From the NCBI GenBank assembly GCA_965218395.1, contig OZ244620.1, positions 1,226,818-1,290,817 of the forward strand: 64,000 nt of DNA, given 5' to 3'. Under the pieces are notes generated by a model that saw only the letters and a program-made list of their open reading frames with translations, was not told the origin of the DNA and searched no databases. The DNA is from an uncultured Candidatus Binatia bacterium. Lineage in GTDB: Bacteria > Desulfobacterota > Binatia > Bin18. Made by a program: the position numbers and the translations under genes. This document shows, piece by piece, positions 3,787-57,288 of the stretch. Position 1 is the first letter of the stretch. Every line of letters starts with the position of its first letter.

Positions 3787-5898
3787 TTACTCCACGTCCG
3801 TAATCACAAAATTCTGACTATTCTGCTGCCACTCCAACAGTACACTCTGCCCCAGGCGGGGGAAGTTCTCCACCACACACTCGCCCTCGACGCCCCGCAG
3901 AAACTCCTGCCCCAGCGTTGTCACCTGTACCGTAGCTCGGCCCAACTCTACCCCATCCGCCTTGGCCACCACCATATGCTCCCCATCCCCCAGCCGATTC
4001 CAGTTGAGCAACAGCCCAAAGCCGTTGTACGTGTCGTCACACACGGTTTTTGTGTCCAGCCGCTCCATCCCATAGCCCGCGGGTTGAGCCCGCCCGTTGA
4101 TCTCAATAGTCACTTCGTCGGCGTCACACACCCAGCCCCAGATTGTCCCAATGCCGCTCTGAAATGACATCGGTCCCGGATTCTCCAACACTCCCCGCTG
4201 CGGCTCAGTAGACACTGGCGGTTCGCTGTGACGGAACGGAGGCACGACGTTCGGGCCTTTGATCCGTATGACTGCCATATGAATGTCACTCAGGTTTTTG
4301 GTGCCGGTCTCGTCAGATAGGAAGGTGCGGAACACGTGGCTTAGTGTTCCATTTGATCCATCGCCGTTGAGCGTCACCACCCCGAACCCACCGCAACTGC
4401 CCAAGGCCGCGTGCTTCACGGAGACGGGATGTGGACCTCGGAAGGAGACGATGAGCCTGCTGCCATCGGGAGAGACATCAATGGAGTCCGGGGCAGGATC
4501 GTCATCGAATTCATAGTCTTCATCATCCTGATTGACAAAGGGCGCTCCTTCGCCGACACACCATTCTGACCCGGTGAGGTCGATGGTTCCCGCATGTGCT
4601 GCTGCCTGCTCTTCCAGCGTTGCGTCGGGATCGTTGATAATCTTGCCCAGATCGAAGACTTCTATGACGTTTTGGATTCGATCAGCCTGATAGAGATATC
4701 GGCCGGTGGTGGGTGAGATGATCATGCCGTGGGCATCACGGCGATTGGCTAAATCCTCTTCAGAGGTGATCCCCAGCGTTTTCTCTTCCAAAAATTTCAC
4801 GGGCCGCGGCATATTAGGCGTTGTGAGAGGGCTGGCGCCATCAGGATAGTCGAGCGGCAGCCGATACATGATGAACACGGAGTCATCCGCGCCGGCGGCA
4901 CTCGCGGACACACCCGCGTTGATATATATAAAGCCACCCCCTTCCTCGCCGCCACACCCGGCGCCATTGATGACGTCATTGGTATATTCGGCAACGATGG
5001 ACATCGGTTCGGTCGTCATATCAACCACAAACAGTCCGCCACCGCCGAGCGTGAGATACACATGCTGATTGTTGCTGCTGGGTCGGGCGCAAACCAGGAC
5101 GTTATTGGGCCGTCCCGGCCCTTCCTTGAGTGTGCCGCTTGGCGTGTACATCGTTTGGAAGTTGGTATACTCCCCGCTCACCTGCCCGGCGGGCAAGGTG
5201 GAATCGGCCATCGCTTCCATAGCGGTTAGGTCTCGGCCCCCCACCAAATCGAGCGTGGCCGCTTTGTTGAAAATGAAGGTGCCGGTCTCCTTATCATAAT
5301 CAATGCGTTCCAACAGCTTTGCGCCAAGATTGGCCACAAGCAGCTTAGTGCCGTCCAGACTGAAATAAGACATATGATTCGAGGGCGCGGAGCCTTCCGG
5401 CCCAGTGGTCCGAAAGAGAGCTTTGGCCAACTTCTCCGCCTCACGCGGTCCCCCTTGAATCGGTCCACATTGCTTGAACCCGTTGCCAGACAGCGTACAT
5501 TGTCCCTCCGCATCGATAATACCCACCAGCCCAACGCCCGGCCCAAAAAAGTTCGCATTCAGATATCGATGTGACGGATGCGGTAACATGCCGTGCAGAC
5601 GCTCGACATTCGCGCCGAGTTCTGAGAACGCGTGTGGAAAGACATCGTCCGCTTCGATGACAGCCGGCGTAAATTCCTCATGGTCTTCAGCATACGTTCC
5701 GGGCTGCGCCCTCATGATGTCGCGGCCTTCGTAGATGAGAATCCGGCTGCCAAAAGTTCCGGTGGGATTCTCGGTGCTGATATCGGCACTATTCGATTGG
5801 TCGGACAACCAGACTTCCCATTCAACCGCCAGGGCATGACTGGCCGTCAACACACACGCCGCGATTACGCTAATAATGCTGTTAAGGGAACGCAACAT
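3787..5898 (-). CDS. Secreted beta-propeller-like protein with a C-terminal extracellular module
   Basis: Signal peptide (..TASHALA/VEW), repeated H-x-x-x-x-S/H-P-x-G blade-like motifs, Pro-rich linker, C-terminal ~135-aa domain LENP..QSGIG.IWGWVC.. Confidence 0.7.
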   Translation of the reverse strand: MLRSLNSIISVIAACVLTASHALAVEWEVWLSDQSNSADISTENPTGTFGSRILIYEGRDIMRAQPGTYAEDHEEFTPAVIEADDVFPHAFSELGANVERLHGMLPHPSHRYLNANFFGPGVGLVGIIDAEGQCTLSGNGFKQCGPIQGGPREAEKLAKALFRTTGPEGSAPSNHMSYFSLDGTKLLVANLGAKLLERIDYDKETGTFIFNKAATLDLVGGRDLTAMEAMADSTLPAGQVSGEYTNFQTMYTPSGTLKEGPGRPNNVLVCARPSSNNQHVYLTLGGGGLFVVDMTTEPMSIVAEYTNDVINGAGCGGEEGGGFIYINAGVSASAAGADDSVFIMYRLPLDYPDGASPLTTPNMPRPVKFLEEKTLGITSEEDLANRRDAHGMIISPTTGRYLYQADRIQNVIEVFDLGKIINDPDATLEEQAAAHAGTIDLTGSEWCVGEGAPFVNQDDEDYEFDDDPAPDSIDVSPDGSRLIVSFRGPHPVSVKHAALGSCGGFGVVTLNGDGSNGTLSHVFRTFLSDETGTKNLSDIHMAVIRIKGPNVVPPFRHSEPPVSTEPQRGVLENPGPMSFQSGIGTIWGWVCDADEVTIEINGRAQPAGYGMERLDTKTVCDDTYNGFGLLLNWNRLGDGEHMVVAKADGVELGRATVQVTTLGQEFLRGVEGECVVENFPRLGQSVLLEWQQNSQNFVITDVE

Positions 5899-15099: not shown

Positions 15100-16266
15100 T
15101 TATGAGGTGGTGGTGAGAGTCTCCATGACTTGCCGGGTATCAATATCGATCAGCTCAACGGTCGCCACCTCACTGCTGCCGGTCTTTTGCCCGGCATCGA
15201 TGAGCTGGCCGCGGAGTTTTTCTCTGAAACCGTCCCGGACAGGCTGAGGCATACCAGCCATGGGGAAATTGCGAAAGAAGACCTGGGCCTGGGTTGACGA
15301 CAGCCACTTAATCCGGACGATTTTGGGCGCCATCATTTCATGTGAGCGAAAGAGCGCTTCGACCGCTTGCTGAAACGCTGAGGCTGGGGTTGGCGACGCG
15401 GTCCGGGAGGGGGGCGTCCCGTTCGAGAATTGTTCCAGAAGCTGGTCGACGCGGGCCTGAATGGCGGTGTTGTCCGTCAGACTCCTGGCCTGCCGTAATG
15501 CGGCGAGCGCTTGTTCGGGCAGGCCCTTCTCCTGGTAGGCCACCCCCAGGTTAAAACGCGCCTGAAAGAAGTCCGGCCGCTCGGCCAGGACGGCCTGATA
15601 GGCAGCGATGGCCAGGTCGATCTGGCCGGTATAGAGGTACATGGTCCCCAGGTCGGTCGTCACGCCGACATCGTCCGGTTTCAGGGCTAAATAGCGCCGA
15701 TAATACTCGATCGCCTTGTGGTGTTCCTCAAGGTCGTAGTACACATTCCCCAGGCCGCGCAGCGCAGCCAGATCACCCGGTACAAGTGCAAACAGCTTGC
15801 GATAGGAAGCCAGGGCCGCACTGCGGTAGCTGGCATCGAGCTGCGACGCTCGGAACTGGACTTCGGCCAGGGTCCGCCACGCACTGGGGTCTTGCGGGGC
15901 GGCATTGGCCTGGGCAACCAGTTCCGCGATACGACTCTTGGCCTCCTCCGGCAGGGCAACCTGGGGATGATTCTGGGGCAGGGCCGAACCGCCCGTGCTG
16001 GCTTGCGTGGCAGGGGTCGGGGTCGGGGCGAAAGGCTCTGTCCGCAGGACAAAGAGCCAGAGTCCGATGCCGACGGCGAGGTAGCAGGACAAAACGATGA
16101 GGCCGGGCAGCGGCAGCCGCCGCGCGCCGGTCGCCGCTGGGGCGGCCGATTTTCGGGCTTTCTGCCCGCCGGCCTGGCCCCCGAGGGCTTCCCCACAATT
16201 CGTACAGAAATGTGCTTTGGGGATAGTCTCTGTCCCGCACTGTGGGCAAAAACGCGCTGTCGCCAT
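15100..16266 (-). CDS. Zinc-ribbon / TM / TPR protein
   Basis: FCPQCG..FCTNCG, one TM helix, LPQNHP, several TPR repeats. Confidence 0.8.
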   Translation of the reverse strand: MATARFCPQCGTETIPKAHFCTNCGEALGGQAGGQKARKSAAPAATGARRLPLPGLIVLSCYLAVGIGLWLFVLRTEPFAPTPTPATQASTGGSALPQNHPQVALPEEAKSRIAELVAQANAAPQDPSAWRTLAEVQFRASQLDASYRSAALASYRKLFALVPGDLAALRGLGNVYYDLEEHHKAIEYYRRYLALKPDDVGVTTDLGTMYLYTGQIDLAIAAYQAVLAERPDFFQARFNLGVAYQEKGLPEQALAALRQARSLTDNTAIQARVDQLLEQFSNGTPPSRTASPTPASAFQQAVEALFRSHEMMAPKIVRIKWLSSTQAQVFFRNFPMAGMPQPVRDGFREKLRGQLIDAGQKTGSSEVATVELIDIDTRQVMETLTTTS

Positions 16267-16326
16267 CCGGCCTCTCCCTCCGTGCACTCTACCTAACAAC
16301 AATACCCCAGGCGGGCTAGACCGGGC

Positions 16327-16334
16327 AGGCGGCG
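16327..16334 (+). repeat. Left 8-bp target-site duplication
   Basis: AGGCGGCG immediately before IRL. Confidence 0.85.
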
Positions 16335-16339
16335 GGTGC

Positions 16340-16414
16340 TGTCCTAATTCAGCGCGGGGTGTCCTAAGTTGGGGGAAGTTTGTCCTAATTTGAGCGGCGA
16401 ACTGTCCTAATTTG
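16340..16414 (+). repeat. Four direct copies of TGTCCTAA(T/G)T spaced 20, 21 and 22 bp
   Basis: Copies start at 16340, 16360, 16381, 16403; AACTGTCCTAATTTG (16400-16414) recurs exactly at 21500-21514. Confidence 0.9.
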
Positions 16415-16955
16415 TGGCGGGGTGGCGGGCGCTAATAACGTCCTCGATTATCCCGAATAAGACGTATTACATCCTGATCTCCTTCTGCGACACCGGCAAC
16501 AAAATTGGTATCCTTAGGAGGCAGAGTGGCATGTTCATGAAAATGTATCGCAATTAACAGTTAAGGGCTTGACATTAGCCCTCGTTCAATCTCGGTGACT
16601 TCAGCTCTTATGATACCATTACCTATCGCTCGCAGGCTCGGCGGGTCGGGGCAATATCGATCATCATAGCTAAAGGAGTGACAAGCATGAGCGACAACTC
16701 CAGCGACCGCCATTGATCGAACTGCGTCCTCCCATCGACGCACATGTCGCGCTCATCGAGACAAGATTTCAAGCTAGATTTCGTGACCCGTGTTTGTCGG
16801 CACCTCGTGCGAGATATTCTGACCACCATCCGTGTACCATCTTGCATGGTCGACTAAGTCGTTGGACAAAATCTCGCTGCTCCCCAAACCTCAGCGTTAG
16901 CGTAGATTGCTACACCATGCTAAAGTAACCCGGCCCGGCGATGGCACCCAGCGGG

Positions 16956-17052
16956 GCGACATCGAGAAGCAGTTGGCGATGACAGCGGCATCGAGAAGCA
17001 GTTGGCGATGACAGCGGCATCGAGAAGCAGTTGGCGATGACAGCGACATCAA
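16956..17052 (+). repeat. 29-bp tandem repeat (~3.3 copies) overlapping the ATPase start
   Basis: Unit GACAGCGGCATCGAGAAGCAGTTGGCGAT, no spacers. Confidence 0.92.
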
Positions 17053-18914
17053 GGGGATCGGATCAGCTTGACCGGCTTGAAGAGAGTATCCGAGCAGCCG
17101 ACAACCATCAACCATTTGAGACTCCGCTTGCGACCAGCGAACGAATCATCGCTCGGGTTACCGACGGAATCTACCGGGAGCCTTGGGCCGCATTCCGCGA
17201 ACTAGTCGCCAATGCATATGATGCTGACGCGTCATATGTGGTGATCGAAACCGGCCGACCCGACTTCCAACGCATGACAGTACGGGACGACGGTATTGGA
17301 ATGTCCCCCAGGACTCTCGCATACGTCTTAAAGAACATAGGCGGCAGCTCGAAGCGAACCGCTGCCGGAACTGAACTCAAGACCGTCAAAAGCGGCGCCC
17401 CCGACCTCAGCCCAGGCGGCCGTCCCCTCATCGGAAAAATCGGTATCGGGTTGTTTGCCATCGCGCAACTAACCCAACATTTTCAGATCATTACCAAGGC
17501 CGCCGGAGAAAACCACAGGCTATCCGCCACCGTCAAACTTCACACCCATGACGAGGAGAGAACTCAACAAGACGACGCGGACTATGTCGCTGGACGCGTG
17601 GTAATTGTGTCCGAGAAGGTTCCAGACAAGGAAATAGAGTCTCACGGTACATCTGTAGTCCTTTACCAGCTGCGCGATGAAGTTCGCCGAACGCTTCAAA
17701 GTGATAGGCTCTGGAACGCTACGCTAGTCGAGTCTGGGGGTGGTGAGTCCGTACGGAAACCGCCACAATTCCATATTGGTTACCTCGGGAAACCGCCGCA
17801 GGAACCTAATTTGCCGTGGCAAGACAAGGACAGCCCGAAAAATAAGTTCGATAGGTTCTTCGAAGCAGCAAGCAGCGCTTCCGGAAGAACAATCAAGTCG
17901 TCGAATCTGGACCATTTCGACGAGTATCTCCGGCTCGTATGGAAGTTAAGCCTCTCCCTTCCTCTAAACTACATTGGTGGTCATCCATTTGATCTGGATG
18001 GATCGAGTGGCATTCTATTTCTTGGCCTTCCAGACGAGAAGGGACAAGCCGACGAACTGCGCCTTGCACCCACAGAATCGCTCCGTGAACATTTGGGCCT
18101 TGGCATGAGCGGCAAAAATATTAACCATCCATTTTCCGTGACACTCGACGGAATCTCTCTACGACGCCCCATCAGCCTTCCCCGTGACCTGATGAAACCG
18201 TCTCGAGTCGGCGCACCGGTTTTGGTCGCCACGAAACAGGAAAATCCATTCTCTGAGAGCACTCTTGAGCGGGCAGGAGGTCATCTTTCGTTCGACGCAT
18301 ATCTCTACTGGAATAGTAAGATAATTCCAAAAGAAACAGCCGGGGTGCTAATTCGAATTCGTGGATCTAGTGGAACACTATTCGATTCCACATTTCTAAA
18401 CTATCAAGTGTCGGAACAAACCAGGCTGCGTCAGATAACCGCCGAAATGTTTATTCACGAGGGGCTCGACAGCGCTATTAACATCGACCGTGAGTCGTTC
18501 AACTACAGTCATCCTCACTTTTTGTATATCCAAAGATGGCTTCACCGGGCGCTTCGACTTCTTGTCAATCGTCTGAAGGCGCGGGCCGCTGCAGATCTCG
18601 CGCGCGCAAAATCCGAGCTTCGAAATAAGGCACTCAGCTACGCGGCAGAGGTCTGGAGTCGTCGGTTGGGGGATGAGGCTGATCCACCATTTTCAGATCC
18701 CACCGTGAGTACCCTTCCCGATGAGGTCGGCGGAGCGGATATCGACTGGCCTTCCGAAGGTATTCTGACTAGCCGGGGTAAACATGTTGGAACAGGCCGA
18801 ATTAGCGCGCTTGCCGCCATTCTGGAGGCGTACGGCGTTTTATCCAGCCTACCCGCTGAGGACCGGGCTCGGATCATCAGCGATATTCTCGGCATTCCCG
18901 AAACAGACGCATAA
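17037..18914 (+). CDS. MORC-like GHKL (HATPase_c/Hsp90-type) ATPase
   Basis: RELVANAYDADA, VRDDGIGM, IGKIGIGLFA, HGTSV; C-terminal S5-like half (..LDSAINIDRESFN); start may be TTG 17031. Confidence 0.85.
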   Translation: MTATSRGSDQLDRLEESIRAADNHQPFETPLATSERIIARVTDGIYREPWAAFRELVANAYDADASYVVIETGRPDFQRMTVRDDGIGMSPRTLAYVLKNIGGSSKRTAAGTELKTVKSGAPDLSPGGRPLIGKIGIGLFAIAQLTQHFQIITKAAGENHRLSATVKLHTHDEERTQQDDADYVAGRVVIVSEKVPDKEIESHGTSVVLYQLRDEVRRTLQSDRLWNATLVESGGGESVRKPPQFHIGYLGKPPQEPNLPWQDKDSPKNKFDRFFEAASSASGRTIKSSNLDHFDEYLRLVWKLSLSLPLNYIGGHPFDLDGSSGILFLGLPDEKGQADELRLAPTESLREHLGLGMSGKNINHPFSVTLDGISLRRPISLPRDLMKPSRVGAPVLVATKQENPFSESTLERAGGHLSFDAYLYWNSKIIPKETAGVLIRIRGSSGTLFDSTFLNYQVSEQTRLRQITAEMFIHEGLDSAINIDRESFNYSHPHFLYIQRWLHRALRLLVNRLKARAAADLARAKSELRNKALSYAAEVWSRRLGDEADPPFSDPTVSTLPDEVGGADIDWPSEGILTSRGKHVGTGRISALAAILEAYGVLSSLPAEDRARIISDILGIPETDA

Positions 18915-18916
18915 AT

Positions 18917-20110
18917 ATGGCGCCCGACGAACCCAATCGGCCGATTGCTGATGAGGTACTACCTGCACAGATCGACGACCTGGCGGTCCCGGTAGCACTA
19001 GACAAACTCTTCCCTTGGCATCGCCCGCGCAAACAATTGGTCCGGGAAAAACAGTGGATACACTTTTCTCGGCAGCTCATCGAAAGGGAAAAGGGTCAAC
19101 CGGGATTACGTGGCTCGCCGAATGCCAACCCAGAAGTCCGGTTCTTAACGCTTCCAGGAATTGACTACCTTGACGTGCGTCAGCTTGCCGACGTATGCCA
19201 AGATCTCGGCTGCTCCCTGACGAGTATAGGATTTCAATCGGGAGGCGAGCAGAATGCCTATGTCGCCCGGGCACAACTCCGAGAAAAGTCTCTGATTGAT
19301 GCTAAGCGCATAACTAGTCAATCACACACCTTCCCGAGAAGGCTCGAGGACATCGTATCTACAAGTAGCCAAGCGTATCAGGAGCTGAAAGAACGCGGGC
19401 CTTTTCACATTGTGAATATAGATGCGTGCGGGTCGATTGCCGCTCCACGGGCGGATCACCCCAACCGTTTGATCGAAGCCGTGTACAGGATTGTTGAGCT
19501 ACAACTTGAACTCATGACTGGCAGATGGTTGCTCTTTGTCACCACCGATGTCCGGCCAGGCTCTGTTGCCCGCGAGACTAGAGATAGGCTCTACAATACG
19601 ATATTCGAAAATGCGGACAAGAACGAAGAATTTCGGAACCGGGCGGTGCCTTTCCTGGCCCCCGGTGAGGTGGATATCAGGGCCGCTGTGAGGACGGCTT
19701 CCGCAAGGCCGGGAATCACGTCTCTCCAGCTCTTTTCGCTCGGCCTCGCCAAATGGTTCATCCACTTGGCACGTGATAAGAACTGGGACATGCAGACCCA
19801 CCATCCCTACTGCTACTCCACGATGCCTGGGAATAACAACACTCCGTCGATGACTTGCCTCGCGTTTGAATTTCTTCCACCGTCTCCAGGTCTTCAGGAT
19901 AGGTTTCAAGTTGCGCGAGCAGAACCTGCTCCTGCGTCGGGACGGGAGGATACGTCGGTACGTGCCGCTGACAAGATAAGAGACATGACCAATGCTGATA
20001 GTAAGATCGGCTCGGATGAACCACTCCGTAACCGTATGGTGGAAGACCTTCGGATGTTGCTCGCGGAAGTCGGCTACAGTTCTACACTGCTGGACGAAAT
20101 TGGAGCATAG
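18917..20110 (+). CDS. Uncharacterised protein, possibly SAM-methyltransferase-like fold
   Basis: FPWHRPRKQ.VREKQW, VRFLTLPGIDYLDVR, HIVNIDACGS; 2 nt after the ATPase stop. Recalls the PP_RS20740-type family (from memory, unverified). Confidence 0.55.
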   Translation: MAPDEPNRPIADEVLPAQIDDLAVPVALDKLFPWHRPRKQLVREKQWIHFSRQLIEREKGQPGLRGSPNANPEVRFLTLPGIDYLDVRQLADVCQDLGCSLTSIGFQSGGEQNAYVARAQLREKSLIDAKRITSQSHTFPRRLEDIVSTSSQAYQELKERGPFHIVNIDACGSIAAPRADHPNRLIEAVYRIVELQLELMTGRWLLFVTTDVRPGSVARETRDRLYNTIFENADKNEEFRNRAVPFLAPGEVDIRAAVRTASARPGITSLQLFSLGLAKWFIHLARDKNWDMQTHHPYCYSTMPGNNNTPSMTCLAFEFLPPSPGLQDRFQVARAEPAPASGREDTSVRAADKIRDMTNADSKIGSDEPLRNRMVEDLRMLLAEVGYSSTLLDEIGA

Positions 20111-21120
20111 GCCGACGCGGAATTTACTGCCGCGACTGTCCCGAGTGCCGAACTGATAGACTTTGCGATAGCTTCGGCTAGCGGCGGCGGAACCGCCTCG
20201 CTCACTTGGTCAATCTGCGCCGAAAGGGTCCCGTCCAGAACGTACTCCTTGGGAAACCCTTGAATCCTCATAGCCTCAAACACGCTCAGCCGCCGTTTGC
20301 CGTCAGGATGCACATGCACCTCCCGATGCCCGTAAGATGCCGTGATGCTCGGTTCGTCCCAGGCGAGTGTCTTAAAGCTACGGGTCGACGAATACCCCTC
20401 GACGAGGGAACCGTCAAAGAACCTGCGGGACTTGGGCGTCATGCACCAGTGATTCGGGTGAACCGGGATCGATTCCTTTTCGATACCTCGGGCAAAATAC
20501 ACCGGCGTAGGCAGACCCCGAATCGCATCTCCGACCGTCACACGCTCCTCGTTTCCGACAGGCGGAGACCACCGCTTCATATAAAATTTATCTTTCGGAA
20601 GCGCTAGCACAAACAGCCGATTGCGATGTTGCGGCACCGAGTGACAAGCCGCATTTACAAGGAAGTCACAAACATCGAAACCATTCTCTTCCAAGCGATT
20701 GATTTCCTGGGCGAGAAGACGGCTGTTCACCGCCCTCTTGAGGTCAGGAACGTTCTCCATCAGTATGAAGTCAAGTGGTCGGCGGTATTTATGGAACTGT
20801 AGTGCTATGGAAAAGAAACGTCGCACCAACTTGCTCCGTGGGTCGGCGACCGAGGCCGAACTGTTAGCCCGTGAAAAGCTCTGGCAGGGCGGGCCGCCGA
20901 TCACGCCGCTCGGAACGAATCTGGCTCCGTGGTCGCAGTCCATATCCGCCAACCGAATCGCTCGTAAGTCGGTGACATGGCCGCGTTGCTCCCCAGGTCG
21001 GTTGCGGTTCCAGGAAGCTATTGAATTTGCGCGAATATCGTACGCCAAGCCGATTTCGAAACCTGCCCGCTCGAAACCTAGATCCAACCCCCCACAACCC
21101 GAGTACAGGCTCAGTAACAC
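20074..21120 (-). CDS. DNA (cytosine-5)-methyltransferase
   Basis: SLYSGCGGLDLG, GGPPCQSFS (catalytic PC), MENV, QHRNRLF, RRLSVFEAMRIQGFP; GTG start after GGGAGG. Confidence 0.92.
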   Translation of the reverse strand: MLLSLYSGCGGLDLGFERAGFEIGLAYDIRANSIASWNRNRPGEQRGHVTDLRAIRLADMDCDHGARFVPSGVIGGPPCQSFSRANSSASVADPRSKLVRRFFSIALQFHKYRRPLDFILMENVPDLKRAVNSRLLAQEINRLEENGFDVCDFLVNAACHSVPQHRNRLFVLALPKDKFYMKRWSPPVGNEERVTVGDAIRGLPTPVYFARGIEKESIPVHPNHWCMTPKSRRFFDGSLVEGYSSTRSFKTLAWDEPSITASYGHREVHVHPDGKRRLSVFEAMRIQGFPKEYVLDGTLSAQIDQVSEAVPPPLAEAIAKSISSALGTVAAVNSASAYAPISSSSVEL

Positions 21121-21553
21121 AATGCATCGCCTCCCGCCTACAATAAGCCTAGCACAATTGACCAATGAGTGCTCCCGCTAAATCAGGGTGGTAGAGGGAA
21201 CCCCCACAAGCCGCTGAAGAGCAGAGCAGGATTGCCCACCAGAAGGGCCGCCGCCCTTGTAGTTGATTACAGAAATTGTCTTTACGTCTTTTTTCTCTCC
21301 CGAGTTTAGACAAGGCGTTTGTCACTCTTAGCTTGACATGTGACCGTCACTAACGGCTTGTTCGTGACTTTGATAGTCATGCCGTATGTGACTCCTTGGT
21401 CTATTTCCCATAAATTCCTGCTACCTTCTGCAGTAATCATACTCATAATCCCATGCTTGGCTCACCGTTGTACACGTCACTCATATGTCCCTCCCCACCA
21501 ACTGTCCTAATTTGAAAAAACAAATCGGAAGCTGTCCAAATTAGGACAGTACC

Positions 21554-21561
21554 AGGCGGCG
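21554..21561 (+). repeat. Right 8-bp target-site duplication
   Basis: AGGCGGCG immediately after IRR. Confidence 0.85.
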
Positions 21562-21622
21562 AATCCAGTTGACAGTCAAGGAGTTGGCTGGATAAGCTGC
21601 GGGCAGCCCTGGGGAGGAATAC

Positions 21623-22897
21623 ATGGCAAAAAAAAGTGCGAAGCGCGACGCTCGCCTGGCACAAGGCAAAAAAGTGCTGGAAGAATGGGGCATTCAGCCC
21701 TCTGCCGGACAGGACGGCAGCCTGGATATTGCCAGCCTGCATGAGCGCATAGGACAGCAGGCTGACGCCGACCTGGCCCTGGCCGCATTCCTGGGCGAGG
21801 TCCAGACGGCAGAGGCGGCCCAATTCCTGGCGGGTTGGGAGGAAAAGGCGGCTGATAAGCGGGTGCGTAAAGAGATTAGCCGGGCCCTCTATCGCCTGGC
21901 GCAAAAAGGGATACGGGCCGACCGGCCGCAAAAGGCAGCGGGCAAGTCCATTCTCACCCCGATTGAACCGGAAGGCTATATCTCCGCAATGGATGGCCGC
22001 GGCGATCGCCTCGTTTGGATAGTGAAATCACGCCTTGGCGGCGGGCTGCATTTCTTGTCTTCGCTGATCAACGAACCAGAAGGGATGCGCTATATTGAGG
22101 GCACGGAAATATCGCGCAAAGTGCTGCGGCAGGCGCTTCAGGATTTGAGCGCTAACCGCGGACTGACTCTGATTGAAGCGCCGTGGCGGTATTGCGATTT
22201 CCTGATGCAGGAAGGCTATGAACGTGCACAGGCACAGGACAAAAAAGAGGTGGAATCCTACCCGGCGGCGCGGTCCTTTGTGTTCACCACGCCGCCAGAA
22301 AGAGTAAACGTGTCCTCCAATCGTTCAGACAAAGCTGGACACGTTTACTCTTTACCCCAAACAGTTCCGCTGCCGGACAGTTTGGATCGGCATGCAATCG
22401 CTGCCGACGAAAATCTACTTGTAACGTCCACTCAGCTTGCCGAAGAACCGGAAATGCAGCGCTGGGTATTCGACCCGGAACAGGCCAAGCCCTATGTCGA
22501 AAAGATAAGCAGTGCGCAGGAGAGCCCGCTGGTGCTGAACCAGCATCAGCAAAAAGACCGGGTGGACGAGGTCATCAAACAAGCGGTTGCCGAGGTGTTT
22601 TCAGGCGAGAGCGGCCGGGCCTACGCGCGGCGTCTGGAAGAAACGGCGCTGTATTTTGCGGCAAGCGGACGTTTGGAGTCAGCCCAACGTGCCCTGGCCG
22701 TGTCTCTGGCGCTCCAAAAAGAGGGCGCGAGCGGCAGTGGTATTCCCTTTTGTGAAGGCTTGGTCCAGCAGAGCATCGGCCTGCACTACACGGAAGAAAA
22801 GCAACACCAACAGGAAGAGGCCAAAGGCTCGCTCATTATGAAGCCGTCCGAGTTTGCGGCGCGGGCGCAGCAGGCCCAGCGCCAGCGGCGGGTCTGA
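21623..22897 (+). CDS. Conserved-looking helical hypothetical protein with an in-frame palindrome insertion
   Basis: 424-aa open frame with host-like codon usage; no family recognised. Confidence 0.7.
   Translation: MAKKSAKRDARLAQGKKVLEEWGIQPSAGQDGSLDIASLHERIGQQADADLALAAFLGEVQTAEAAQFLAGWEEKAADKRVRKEISRALYRLAQKGIRADRPQKAAGKSILTPIEPEGYISAMDGRGDRLVWIVKSRLGGGLHFLSSLINEPEGMRYIEGTEISRKVLRQALQDLSANRGLTLIEAPWRYCDFLMQEGYERAQAQDKKEVESYPAARSFVFTTPPERVNVSSNRSDKAGHVYSLPQTVPLPDSLDRHAIAADENLLVTSTQLAEEPEMQRWVFDPEQAKPYVEKISSAQESPLVLNQHQQKDRVDEVIKQAVAEVFSGESGRAYARRLEETALYFAASGRLESAQRALAVSLALQKEGASGSGIPFCEGLVQQSIGLHYTEEKQHQQEEAKGSLIMKPSEFAARAQQAQRQRRV
22299..22353. repeat. Palindromic element copy 2, inside a CDS
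   Basis: AAAGAGTAAACGTGTCC-N21-GGACACGTTTACTCTTT, translated within ERVNVSSNRSDKAGHVYSL. Confidence 0.9.
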
Positions 22898-55002: not shown

Positions 55003-55067
55003 AATATACCCCCCAGTTAAAGATACCCTACCGTGGCACGCAGGGCTTGTCTTGGCAAGGGTAGGGT

Positions 55068-55082
55068 GGCCCTGTCCTAATT
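55068..55082 (+). repeat. Isolated copy of the IS6-like IR motif
   Basis: GGCCCTGTCCTAATT, 13/15 to the 16335 IR; no partner found. Confidence 0.55.
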
Positions 55083-55130
55083 AGGGTACTAATATGCTTG
55101 CGTCAGTAAATTCAAGATGCAGCCACACGC

Positions 55131-55387: not shown

Positions 55388-56450
55388 TAGAGCCTTCTGT
55401 GAATAGATTGAATCGGGGGGGGGTTCTTCAAGCCAGGGGGGCGGTGTGGCAAGCTGCGGGGAGCGGGAGGAAGGAGGCGAGCAGCAGATGGCCCGAGCGT
55501 ATTCTCAAGACTTGCGGGACCGAGTGATTGATGCCGTGACGCGGGAGGGGCTGAGCCGGCGGGCCGCGGCGCGGCGGTTTGGGGTCAGTAGCGCGTCCGC
55601 GATCAAGTGGCTCCAGCGCGTGCACAGGACCGGGGAGCGGGGGAGCGCGGGCACCGGGGGGCATCGGCCCTCGCAGGTGCAACCGGAGCGGGCGTGGTTA
55701 TTGGCGGTGATCGCGGTGCAGCCGGACATCACGCTGGCCGCGTTGGCGGCCCGGTTGTTGGAAGAGCGGGGGGTGAGGGCGGATACAGGGATGTTGTCCC
55801 GGTTCTTCACAGGGGCCGGGATCAGCTTTAAAAAAAGCCTCTCGGCCTCCGAGCAGGCGCGCCCGGACATCGCGCGGCGCCGGGCCCGCTGGCAGCGCGC
55901 GCAAGGCCAGCTTGATCCCCACCGGCTCGTGTTTATTGATGAGACGTGGGCCAAGACTAATATGACCCGCAGCCACGGCCGCTGCCCGCGTGGCCAGCGG
56001 TTGGCCGCCACGCGGCCCTATGGGCATTGGCAAACTCTGACCTTCGTGGCGGCCCTCCGGCGCGACCGCCTGACCGCCCCCTGTGTCTTCAACGGCCCGA
56101 TCAACGGTCCCCGCTTCCTCGCCTATGTGGAACAATGCCTCCTCCCCACGCTGACTGCTGGCGATATCGTCATCCTGGACAATCTCAGCAGCCACAAGAG
56201 CGCCGCCGTGCGGACCGCCATCGAGCGGGCGGGCGCCACGCTGCGCTTCCTGCCCCCCTATTCGCCCGATCTCAACCCGATTGAACAGGTCTTCGCCAAG
56301 CTCAAAGCCTCCCTCCGCCACGCGGCGGAACGCACGGTCGAGGCGACATGGCAACGGGTCGGAACCCTCCTTGATCGCTTCGGACCTGAGGAATGCCGCC
56401 ATTACTTCACCCATGCTGGCTATGCGTCAACCTAAAAACAGAAAGCACTA
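55388..56450 (+). mobile_element. IS630-family insertion sequence
   Basis: Ends CTAGAGCCTTCTGT / ACAGAAAGCACTAG (imperfect IR, TA-centred). Confidence 0.85.
55488..56435 (+). CDS. IS630 transposase, single reading frame
   Basis: MARAYSQDLR, VFIDET, ILDNLSSHK, LPPYSPDLNPIEQVF. Confidence 0.92.
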   Translation: MARAYSQDLRDRVIDAVTREGLSRRAAARRFGVSSASAIKWLQRVHRTGERGSAGTGGHRPSQVQPERAWLLAVIAVQPDITLAALAARLLEERGVRADTGMLSRFFTGAGISFKKSLSASEQARPDIARRRARWQRAQGQLDPHRLVFIDETWAKTNMTRSHGRCPRGQRLAATRPYGHWQTLTFVAALRRDRLTAPCVFNGPINGPRFLAYVEQCLLPTLTAGDIVILDNLSSHKSAAVRTAIERAGATLRFLPPYSPDLNPIEQVFAKLKASLRHAAERTVEATWQRVGTLLDRFGPEECRHYFTHAGYAST

Positions 56451-57288
56451 GGGTCAGGACTCATAAAGGGGGTTTTCTTGGCCAGCAGGGTGTGCTGCTC
56501 TCTCTGCCGTGGAGGGAAGAAGCGATGAGTAATCAGTTCTGGCTGTCCGCAGCCCAATTTGCCCGGCTCCAGCCGCTGTTGCCGACGGCCACGCGCGGGG
56601 TGCCGCGGGTGGACGACCGGCGGGTCATTTCGGGGATCGTGCACGTGTTGCAGAGCGGGTGTCGGTGGCGCGCTACGCCGCCCGTCTATGGGCCGTCCAA
56701 GACGTTGTACAACCGGTTCGTGCGCTGGGCGCGGAAGGGGGTCTGGGAGCGCGTCTTCACGGCACTGGCCCCGGCCGGCGGCCCGCCCGAGACGCTGATG
56801 CTCGATGCGACCTACGTCAAGGCGCATCGGTCGGCGGGGGGCGGAAAAGGGGGGCGCAGCAGCAGGCGATTGGGCGATCCCGTGGGGGGCGGACCACGAA
56901 AATCCATGCCGCGGTCGATGAGGCCGGCCGCCCCCGGCGGCTGATTATCGGCCCGGGCCATCGCGGGGACGCGCCTGTCGGCGCTGCCCTTGTGGCCACC
57001 CTGCGTCCGGCCCGCTGCCTGGCCGATACCGCCTACGACAGTGAGGCGTTGCGCGCCTGGCTGGAGACCCGGGGCTGCCAGCCGGTCAGCCCCAACAATC
57101 CGACTCGCAAGCGGAAACACCCCTTCGACAAAACCGCTTATCGGGCACGCAATATCATTGAACGTACCTTCTGTCGGCTCAAAGACTGGCGCCGCATCGC
57201 CACCCGCTACGACAAGCTCGCATACAACTACCTCGCCGCCGTCGCCCTCGCTGCCATCGTCATCTATTGGTTATGAGTCCAGACCCTA
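56449..57288 (+). mobile_element. IS5-family (IS427-group-like) insertion sequence, two-ORF frameshift transposase (56525-57276)
   Basis: IR CTAGGGTCAGGACTCATAA / TTATGAGTCCAGACCCTAG; orfA MSNQFWLS..LDATYVKAH, orfB GRSRGG..TKIH..LADTAYD..RNIIER.F..LK.WRRIATRYDK; slippery GGAAAAGGGGGG. Confidence 0.9.

Follow-up and report, generated by a model that had tools for sequence, protein, structure and literature searches.

A candidate mobile insertion cassette in a Binatia chromosome

We analysed a stretch of 64,000 nucleotides from contig OZ244620.1 of an uncultured Candidatus Binatia bacterium, called the window below. Positions 16335-21553 of the window, about 5.2 kb, are probably (we put the probability at about 0.72) a non-autonomous mobile insertion cassette of the IS1 family. 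It carries a captured module of three genes between the ends of an insertion sequence (IS) and would have been moved by transposase supplied in trans. An earlier reading of this DNA, the original prediction, had described a recently inserted, IS6-like unit without a transposase that carries a DNA-modification or defence module. The family assignment is here corrected from IS6 to IS1. The window thus offers a base-resolved case of a restriction-modification-type module on borrowed IS ends, with an empty site and a natural presence/absence polymorphism. To our knowledge, the host phylum (Binatia) is known from metagenomes only.

Boundaries of the element

The terminal inverted repeats are 15 bp long and match at 14 of 15 positions: GGTGCTGTCCTAATT on the plus strand at 16335-16349 and GGTACTGTCCTAATT on the minus strand at 21539-21553. 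They are flanked by two perfect copies of the 8-bp target-site duplication AGGCGGCG (16327-16334 and 21554-21561). The repeats, their 14/15 match and the duplication are as described in the original prediction. The ends begin with GGTGCTG and GGTACTG, in agreement with the form GGnnnTG, and the 8-bp duplication is within the 8-9 bp of the IS1 family. The left 15-mer also bounds more than 50 independent elements in other genomes. By calculation, chance would yield about 4e-4 occurrences per 64 kb of a 15-bp inverted repeat that has at most one mismatch and is flanked, within 10 kb, by a perfect 8-bp repeat. The GC content of the element is 50-56%, compared with 60-65% in the flanks. As predicted, the insertion lies in the intergenic region between a TPR gene (15100-16302, minus strand) and the divergent gene starting at 21623 (plus strand).

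Empty site and polymorphism

To reconstruct the empty site, the two flanks were joined around a single 8-bp target, and the product was aligned to 20 syntenic loci of related Candidatus Binatia. All 20 align across the junction without gaps, have a single target copy and contain no part of the element. The flanks are 81-90% identical at the DNA level among Binatia, and the nearest relative among the 20 has 92% identity in the neighbouring protein.

The exact empty site was also found in metagenomes. In samples X3 and X5 a contig path joins position 16325 to 21553, 9 bases being ambiguous owing to the duplication. The depth of the empty path is 14.5x in X3 and 21.1x in X5, and that of the path entering the element about 34-37x and 52-56x, respectively. 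The corresponding depths in X7 are 105x for the empty form and about 2x for the element. The share of the empty form is about 30% in X3 and X5 and about 98% in X7. The occupied and empty alleles of X3 and X5 have zero differences across more than 500 bp on each side, and X7 is dominated by a slightly different element-free strain with five single-nucleotide polymorphisms in the flanks. A 5.8-kb contig from ENA (L120) is 100% identical to the window and contains the same insertion. Occupied copies were seen in at least four samples, all of them already without a transposase.

As empty and occupied paths coexist in public metagenomes, the insertion is polymorphic in nature. It is also recent, since the site is empty in all 20 relatives and both forms still segregate in natural populations. 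Two further claims of the original prediction, a real insertion with an 8-bp target duplication and a recent date, are thus supported by the single-target empty site that it had proposed to look for.

Arms and subterminal repeats

Homology to the copies of the cargo that occur without such ends (L150) begins at position 16576. The block 16576-21319 being present elsewhere without the ends, the transposon-specific sequence is limited to two arms, a non-coding left arm of 241 bp (16335-16575) and a right arm of 234 bp without a transposase remnant (21320-21553). Both arms contain additional copies of the core TGTCCTAA(T/G)TT, all of them direct and none of them mentioned in the original prediction. 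The left arm has three subterminal copies on the plus strand (16359-16412), namely GTGTCCTAAGT at 16359, TTGTCCTAATT at 16380 and CTGTCCTAATT at 16402, about 21-22 bp apart. In the right arm there are two, also on the plus strand (21502-21542), CTGTCCTAATT at 21502 and CTGTCCAAATT at 21532; the latter overlaps the right terminal repeat, and together they make a near-palindrome. The 11-mer core occurs seven times in the window versus 0.59 expected, and none of 100 shuffles reached seven. The subterminal copies are presumed to be extra transposase-binding sites. A scan of the element with Rfam and for promoters and terminators gave no signal.

Family of elements with the same ends

Two scans were made for other elements. 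In the first, species-representative genomes were searched for GGTRCTGTCCTAATT, and the matches listed include at least 24 elements that are complete and independent, with lengths from 26 bp to 5.7 kb, both repeats and their own 8-bp duplications. In the second, the pattern was a 21-mer that is characteristic of the palindromic right end; it was found at no fewer than 119 loci, compared with about two expected by chance (calculated). Among the genomes with a match are those of cultured strains of Bradyrhizobium and Nitrobacter, together with several chromosomes of Binatia. The right-end census added at least 31 complete elements, nearly all with a perfect 8-bp duplication; L149 and the two-copy element L147/L148 are among the further complete elements. 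Full-length transposase genes, present at 18 of the 85 assessable right ends, point toward the palindromic end in all 18 cases; another 15 ends have fragments of the gene and 52 have none. Thus both the autonomous elements and the other cargos that the original prediction proposed to search for exist.

Two autonomous elements from Binatia, L113 and L149, are each 3.5 kb long, with duplications CGGAGCCA and ATTATTCT, respectively. Their left ends have the terminal repeat followed by two direct subterminal copies, and their right ends two or three direct copies, the last one fused to the inverted terminal copy. Judged from the sequences, this is the same unusual asymmetric layout of multiple repeats as in the window; its left-end part is present in L043 and L147 as well.

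The contig OZ242288.1 contains an autonomous sister element of 2,481 bp in two copies with 100% identity (L147 3794-6274 and L148 3794-6274), flanked by different duplications, CCGGGGGA and GAGGCAGG. All its terminal and subterminal repeats are altered together to TGTCT(T/G)A, as expected of transposase-binding sites. The element L043 (2.3 kb) has the end layout of the window and retains a 43-47-aa N-terminal remnant of the transposase.

No accessory open reading frame (ORF), such as an InsA-like gene, is common to the autonomous elements: they share the transposase alone, and the rest is variable cargo. In a scan of 56 non-transposase ORFs from 25 complete elements, genes of toxin-antitoxin type dominated (PIN, HicB, SocA/Panacea, Gp49/HigB, and helix-turn-helix and ribbon-helix-helix antitoxins). 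A few passengers match the defence library (PD-Lambda-2_C, 'Beta protein', DrmD-like), some are nested ISs, and many have no family. The 4.7-kb module of the window is the largest genuine cargo among the elements examined. The 5.4-kb element L240, without an IS1 transposase, was considered as a second large cassette and rejected, its size being due to a nested IS21. In L047, a locus of the closest relative, the ends are degenerate and no duplication was found by which to pair them; it was not accepted as an element. A literature search on the end sequence and on ISMhu11 found nothing.

Several smaller or more distant members of the family were seen in passing. A 5.7-kb autonomous element (L027 767-6500) has a HigBA-like pair, formed by a Gp49/HigB-like gene and a helix-turn-helix antitoxin, and a protein with a RelA/SpoT domain, a toxSAS-like candidate; L043 has a toxin-antitoxin pair in common with it. 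A 3.4-kb element of the Mesorhizobium loti plasmid CP050295.1 (L153 296-3665), a relative of this lineage from a cultured organism, is bounded by repeats that match perfectly over 16 bp or more (GGTAGTGGGTCAGTTT) and by an 8-bp duplication that is likewise perfect (CGCTGGTG). It contains an annotated IS1-family transposase and three passenger genes.

At the other extreme are elements of 26-34 bp that consist of just two abutting or overlapping terminal repeats (GGTACTGTCCTAATTAGGACAGTACC): L101 6015-6040, L040 4711-4736, L086 5475-5508 and L198 at about 5136-5161. The duplications of L040 and L086 are perfect, and that of L101 has one mismatch (CGGACGAA versus CGGGCGAA). The palindromic right end of the larger elements resembles such a mini-element, and palindromic right ends may seed them. 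Finally, a miniature inverted-repeat transposable element (MITE) of about 90 bp combines these ends with an internal hairpin rich in GC (…GTAGCGCCGCCATCTTGGCGGC…GCCGGCTGGAAGCCGGCGCTAC…); it was found in L061, L029, L037, L045, L084, L104 and others, and is abundant in genomes of Acidobacteriota/Terriglobia.

Class of the transposase

As the copy in the window has no transposase, its membership of the IS1 family rests on its ends and on its relatives. In L027, L066, L113, L149 and L147/L148 the transposase is encoded by one uninterrupted ORF of 273-300 aa. The Pfam model DDE_Tnp_IS1 (PF03400) gives 33.5 bits for L027 and 39.4 bits for L113 versus a gathering score of 24.1. The best model is NCBIfam IS1 (NF033558), with E-values of 1e-17 to 1e-20 and 61-74 bits, which is below its equivalog cut-off of 100. 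On the same transposases the NCBIfam IS6 model (NF033587) has E-values of 1e-5 to 1e-7, and IS6 models applied to transposases between these ends give 22-30 bits versus cut-offs of 27 (Pfam DDE_Tnp_IS240) and 125 (NCBIfam).

Homologs from plasmids with 36-40% identity are annotated as 'IS1 family transposase', and the same search reaches IS1 copies of E. coli at about 30% identity. The JGI names in the protein collection are likewise IS1. In an alignment of the transposases of L113, L149, L147, L066 and L027 with the Mesorhizobium homolog and an IS1-family copy from E. coli, residues D66, D136, E183, R184, N186, L187, R194 and R195 are invariant, so that the signature ERxNLxxRxxxRR extends up to E. 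coli IS1. The ends of the E. coli IS1-family copy, GGTGATGC(C/T)TC(T/C)AATT(G/A)G, have the pattern GGTG...TCC.AATT in common with the ends considered here.

Models, aligned catalytic residues and plasmid annotation all point to a transposase of the IS1 type and not of the IS6 type. The IS6-like assignment of the original prediction is therefore not supported: the transposases found between these ends are classed as IS1-family, and the asymmetric ends with multiple sites are unlike the simple IS6-type end that had been assumed. According to the ISfinder summary, members of the IS1 family have GGnnnTG ends and duplications of 8-9 bp. In canonical IS1, 768 bp in length, the 23-bp repeats are simple, and the overlapping frames insA and insB' are fused through a programmed frameshift. 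We know of no structure of an IS1-type enzyme.

A sub-type of the ends with a longer repeat (CTGTCCTAATTAGGGYAMTAATA) bounds the element L015, which has a bona fide IS1595-family transposase (187 bits versus a cut-off of 75). Since L015 pairs such ends with an IS1595-family transposase, two related transposase families use closely similar ends. At 55063-55100 the window has a solo end of a related sub-type (GGCCCTGTCCTAATTAGGGTACTAATATGCTTG), whose partner was not found within the 64 kb. In L015 and in L141, elements are bounded by pairs of ends of this sub-type.

The cargo module

The cargo block (16576-21319, 4.7 kb) is 91-93% identical at the DNA level to L150, L141, L145 and L151, where no trace of IS1-type ends was found around it. 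Because relatives carry the cargo without the ends, it is an independent module captured between IS ends. The original prediction had counted cargo without inverted repeats in relatives as evidence against itself. Such relatives exist, and the mobility of the element in the window is not thereby refuted.

In agreement with the earlier reading, the element contains three intact genes and no transposase, and the genes are of the DNA-modification or defence type. The first encodes a GHKL (Bergerat-fold) ATPase of 625-627 aa (17031/17037-18914, plus strand) with the HATPase_c_3 domain and motifs ExxxNxxD, DxGxG and GxxGxG. Its weak similarity to the restriction-enzyme model BbrUII/HgiDII (58 bits versus a cut-off of 550) does not extend beyond the GHKL domain. 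The second gene (18917-20110, plus strand) encodes a 397-aa protein of the PP_RS20740 family (NF047698, 277 bits versus a cut-off of 200; PF28273). The third (20074-21165, minus strand) is convergent to the second and overlaps it. Its product is a C5 cytosine DNA methyltransferase of the Dcm type (PF00145, 153 bits; TIGR00675, 128 bits versus 100.65), in which the motifs FxGxG, PCQ, ENV and QxRxR are legible and which is predicted to be active.

The PP_RS20740-family protein is predicted to have a divergent class-I Rossmann fold similar to that of S-adenosylmethionine (SAM)-dependent methyltransferases. Its structural model has a predicted local distance difference test score (pLDDT) of 85.7, and the best Foldseek matches (E 5e-5, TM about 0.3) are class-I SAM methyltransferases, including DNA methyltransferases. 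A sequence search of PDB with the family profile gave no match.

The start of the ATPase gene coincides with a tandem repeat of three 29-bp units (about 16956-17042, extending to 17053, plus strand), each unit spanning the ATPase ATG and the bases immediately before it. Of these ATGs, the last alone is in frame. There are three copies of the unit in the window, two in L150 and one in L141. Slippage in this repeat may switch the expression of the ATPase.

Five other contexts (L141, L142/L143, L144, L145 and L150) were found to contain these three genes, with gene order and convergent overlap unchanged. The module adjoins a tyrosine integrase and Vsr in L144, is located among other IS types in L142/L143, and among small unknown genes in L141. 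Some of these copies have decayed: the methyltransferase gene is truncated in L141 and L150, and L150 also has a split PP_RS20740 gene. The window has full-length versions of all three. The cargo is thus a conserved, uncharacterised three-gene system of GHKL, methyltransferase-fold and Dcm proteins, and a candidate defence system.

GHKL ATPases linked to cytosine methylases and Vsr have been described as predicted components of restriction-modification systems (Iyer et al. 2008, PMC2292703). The module resembles the paraMORC/MORC operons with Dcm and Vsr described there in having a GHKL ATPase of about 630 aa linked to a C5 methyltransferase and, in L144, Vsr. The C-terminal half of the window ATPase matches no assigned family. 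R.HgiDII likewise combines a GHKL domain with an unassigned C-terminal part (PMC2441816), and it is to enzymes of the R.HgiDII/BbrUII type that the window ATPase has its weak similarity over the GHKL domain. The module differs from the known GHKL restriction-modification systems in that the similarity is confined to the ATPase domain, no nuclease domain is recognised, and the methyltransferase-fold protein of the PP_RS20740 family is always present. Given the combination of GHKL and Dcm proteins and the methyltransferase-like fold, a defence or restriction role is a reasonable inference, and the cargo is most likely a defence system of the restriction-modification type.

Absence of a transposase

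A search with 120 transposases of the family found neither a transposase nor a remnant of one in the element or elsewhere in the 64-kb window. The arms contain no transposase remnants, and the only matches, at noise level, were inside the cargo genes. A 329-aa ORF at 55446-56435, near a second CTGTCCTAATT site, was considered as a resident partner and rejected, being a transposase of the IS630 type next to one of the IS5 type. This cluster (55446-57276) consists of the IS630-type gene (DDE_3, 55446-56435) followed by an IS5-type pair (DUF4096 and DDE_Tnp_1, 56393-57276), and is unrelated to the IS1-type ends.

Likely mode of movement and alternatives

According to the preferred reading, mobilisation in trans, an IS1-type DDE transposase would bind the GGTRCTGTCCTAATT repeats at the termini and the TGTCCTAA copies stacked subterminally, that is, three or four direct copies at the left end, and one to three direct copies plus the palindromic terminal pair at the right end. 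It would then pair the two ends and insert the element by 8-bp staggered cuts, leaving the AGGCGGCG duplication. The 4.7-kb module would have been captured from elsewhere between the 241-bp and 234-bp arms, and the transposase would have acted in trans, for instance from an autonomous relative that came in on the same DNA. The missing transposase would be accounted for by a plasmid or phage donor that carried an autonomous copy alongside the cassette. The insertion would be recent enough for cells with and without the element still to coexist. Movement in trans is the simplest account, because there is no transposase or remnant, the insertion is recent, and all occupied copies lack the gene.

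Several observations weigh against mobilisation in trans, or against the functions ascribed to the element. Among the listed members of the best 120 transposase clusters (those with about 46% identity or more to the transposase of L113; P0114 not enumerated), none is from the window's 5,009,064-bp contig, and a cognate transposase for this genome was found neither among these members nor in the 64-kb window. No second site of the same cassette, with arms and cargo, was seen: the ends of the element are not branch points in the metagenome graphs, and therefore no second insertion site is visible in these assemblies. Movement as a transposase-less unit is thus not directly shown. The two right-end repeats are 30 bp apart in the window versus 21-22 bp in the autonomous relatives. 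As for the cargo, no nuclease domain or family was recognised in any of the three proteins, and the match of the PP_RS20740 protein to methyltransferase folds is weak (TM about 0.3).

One alternative is that the element arrived as an autonomous IS1-family transposon with passengers and lost its transposase in situ by deletion or replacement. Decay of the transposase is common in the family, as the fragments at 15 of 85 right ends and the 43-47-aa remnant in L043 demonstrate. However, no remnant is left in the 234-bp right arm or in the rest of the element, and the interior is one contiguous block that is found elsewhere without a transposase. Moreover, the insertion is very recent, yet the occupied copies in at least four samples, including the 100% identical L120, all lack the gene. 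We therefore regard loss in situ as unlikely. It is also rather improbable that transposition occurred in another lineage and the occupied allele was imported whole by homologous recombination across the conserved flanks. Such an import would agree with the lack of a cognate transposase in the window and among the listed cluster members, with the 81-90% identity of the flanks in Binatia, and with the element-free strain of X7 that differs by five flank polymorphisms. On the other hand, the insertion is present in none of the 20 related species, and the X3 and X5 alleles are identical over more than 500 bp per side, hence no recombination tract is visible. In any case, import would alter the place of the transposition and not the nature of the element.

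The other two alternatives concern what the element is. A cargo unit derived from IS6 and moved by an IS26-like transposase via cointegrate formation would have the observed 8-bp duplication and ends beginning with GGnnCTG, and the related transposases do have a weak secondary match to the IS240/IS6 DDE model. This possibility is nevertheless very remote, given that the transposases score higher on the IS1 models than on those of IS6 and exceed the threshold of the Pfam IS1 model, that their catalytic signature can be aligned with that of E. coli IS1, and that the curated annotation of the homologs is IS1. Further, the ends in the window have several subterminal repeats, and IS6 members are 0.79-0.88 kb long, with one ORF and short, simple terminal repeats, just one being known with a passenger gene (PMC7986276). 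That the repeats are a product of chance or regulatory sequence, and the segment an ordinary genomic island, for instance integrase-borne, agrees with the lower GC content of the segment and with nothing more. This explanation is already refuted by the precise empty site with a single target copy, the polymorphism, and the more than 50 independent elements with the same ends, each with its own 8-bp duplication; there is also neither an integrase nor a tRNA gene at the borders.

Comparison with known elements

The term 'mobile insertion cassette' (MIC) comes from the IS literature (PMC3129680), and known examples are MIC231 of Bacillus cereus, mic elements carrying qnrD, and MICs of the Tn3 family in Xanthomonas (PMC3129680, PMC3913671, PMC4337579). 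Like these, the element in the window has IS-type inverted repeats around passengers, a target-site duplication and no transposase, and there are autonomous ISs with the same ends (here L113 and L149), thought to supply the transposase in trans. Unlike these, its parent family is IS1 rather than IS4/IS231 or Tn3, its ends are asymmetric with stacked subterminal repeats, and its cargo is a 4.7-kb, three-gene module resembling restriction-modification systems rather than a single gene. For the window element, mobilisation in trans is what we infer from the data above.

The lineage shares with the IS1 family, in particular its single-ORF members and the passenger-carrying 'transporter IS', the DDE signature D..D..E-R-x-N-L..RR, the GGnnnTG ends and the 8-bp duplication (8-9 bp in IS1). 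On plasmids, including those of Mesorhizobium, related 3.4-kb elements with passengers have the annotation IS1 family. It differs from canonical IS1 in having a single ORF of 270-300 aa instead of insA/insB', a size of 2.2-5.7 kb and asymmetric multiple subterminal repeats, and thus resembles the single-ORF IS1 subgroups rather than canonical IS1. It should be noted that the NCBIfam IS1 score of the lineage is under the cut-off (61-74 versus 100 bits) and that the window copy has no transposase. With the IS6 family (IS26, IS257) the lineage has in common the 8-bp duplication and ends beginning with GG..CTG; it differs in the class of transposase, the larger size (2.2-5.7 kb for autonomous elements), the several end repeats and the frequent passengers.

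The kind of element is thus already known, and the asymmetric multi-site ends of this IS1 sub-lineage are apparently undescribed. The sub-lineage is large and apparently little described, with stacked asymmetric putative binding sites, abundant MITEs and frequent toxin-antitoxin or defence passengers. The short arms and the candidate transposases of L113 and L149 form a ready system for studying mobilisation in trans and the role of the subterminal repeats.

A more speculative possibility, which we advance tentatively and consider doubtful at present, is that the ends of this widespread, apparently undescribed sub-lineage (Binatia, Acidobacteriota, Bradyrhizobium and other Alphaproteobacteria) favour shedding of the transposase, so that it works as a shuttle for trans-mobilised cassettes. 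Such a shuttle would carry toxin-antitoxin, defence and restriction-modification cassettes between a left array of direct repeats and a right, self-contained palindromic 'mini-element'. The same ends would seed MITEs of 26-100 bp and appear to be common to IS1595-type transposases, and the polymorphic insertion described here would be a live example in a wild population.

Neighbouring promoter region

The insertion splits a 120-bp divergent promoter region (16303-16334 and 21562-21622). The TPR gene (15100-16302) is now cut off from the sequence formerly to the right of the insertion site, and read-out from the left arm may be needed for its expression. The promoter-like site TTGACA...ATAAGC of the gene at 21623 is intact and begins 8 bp to the right of the insertion.

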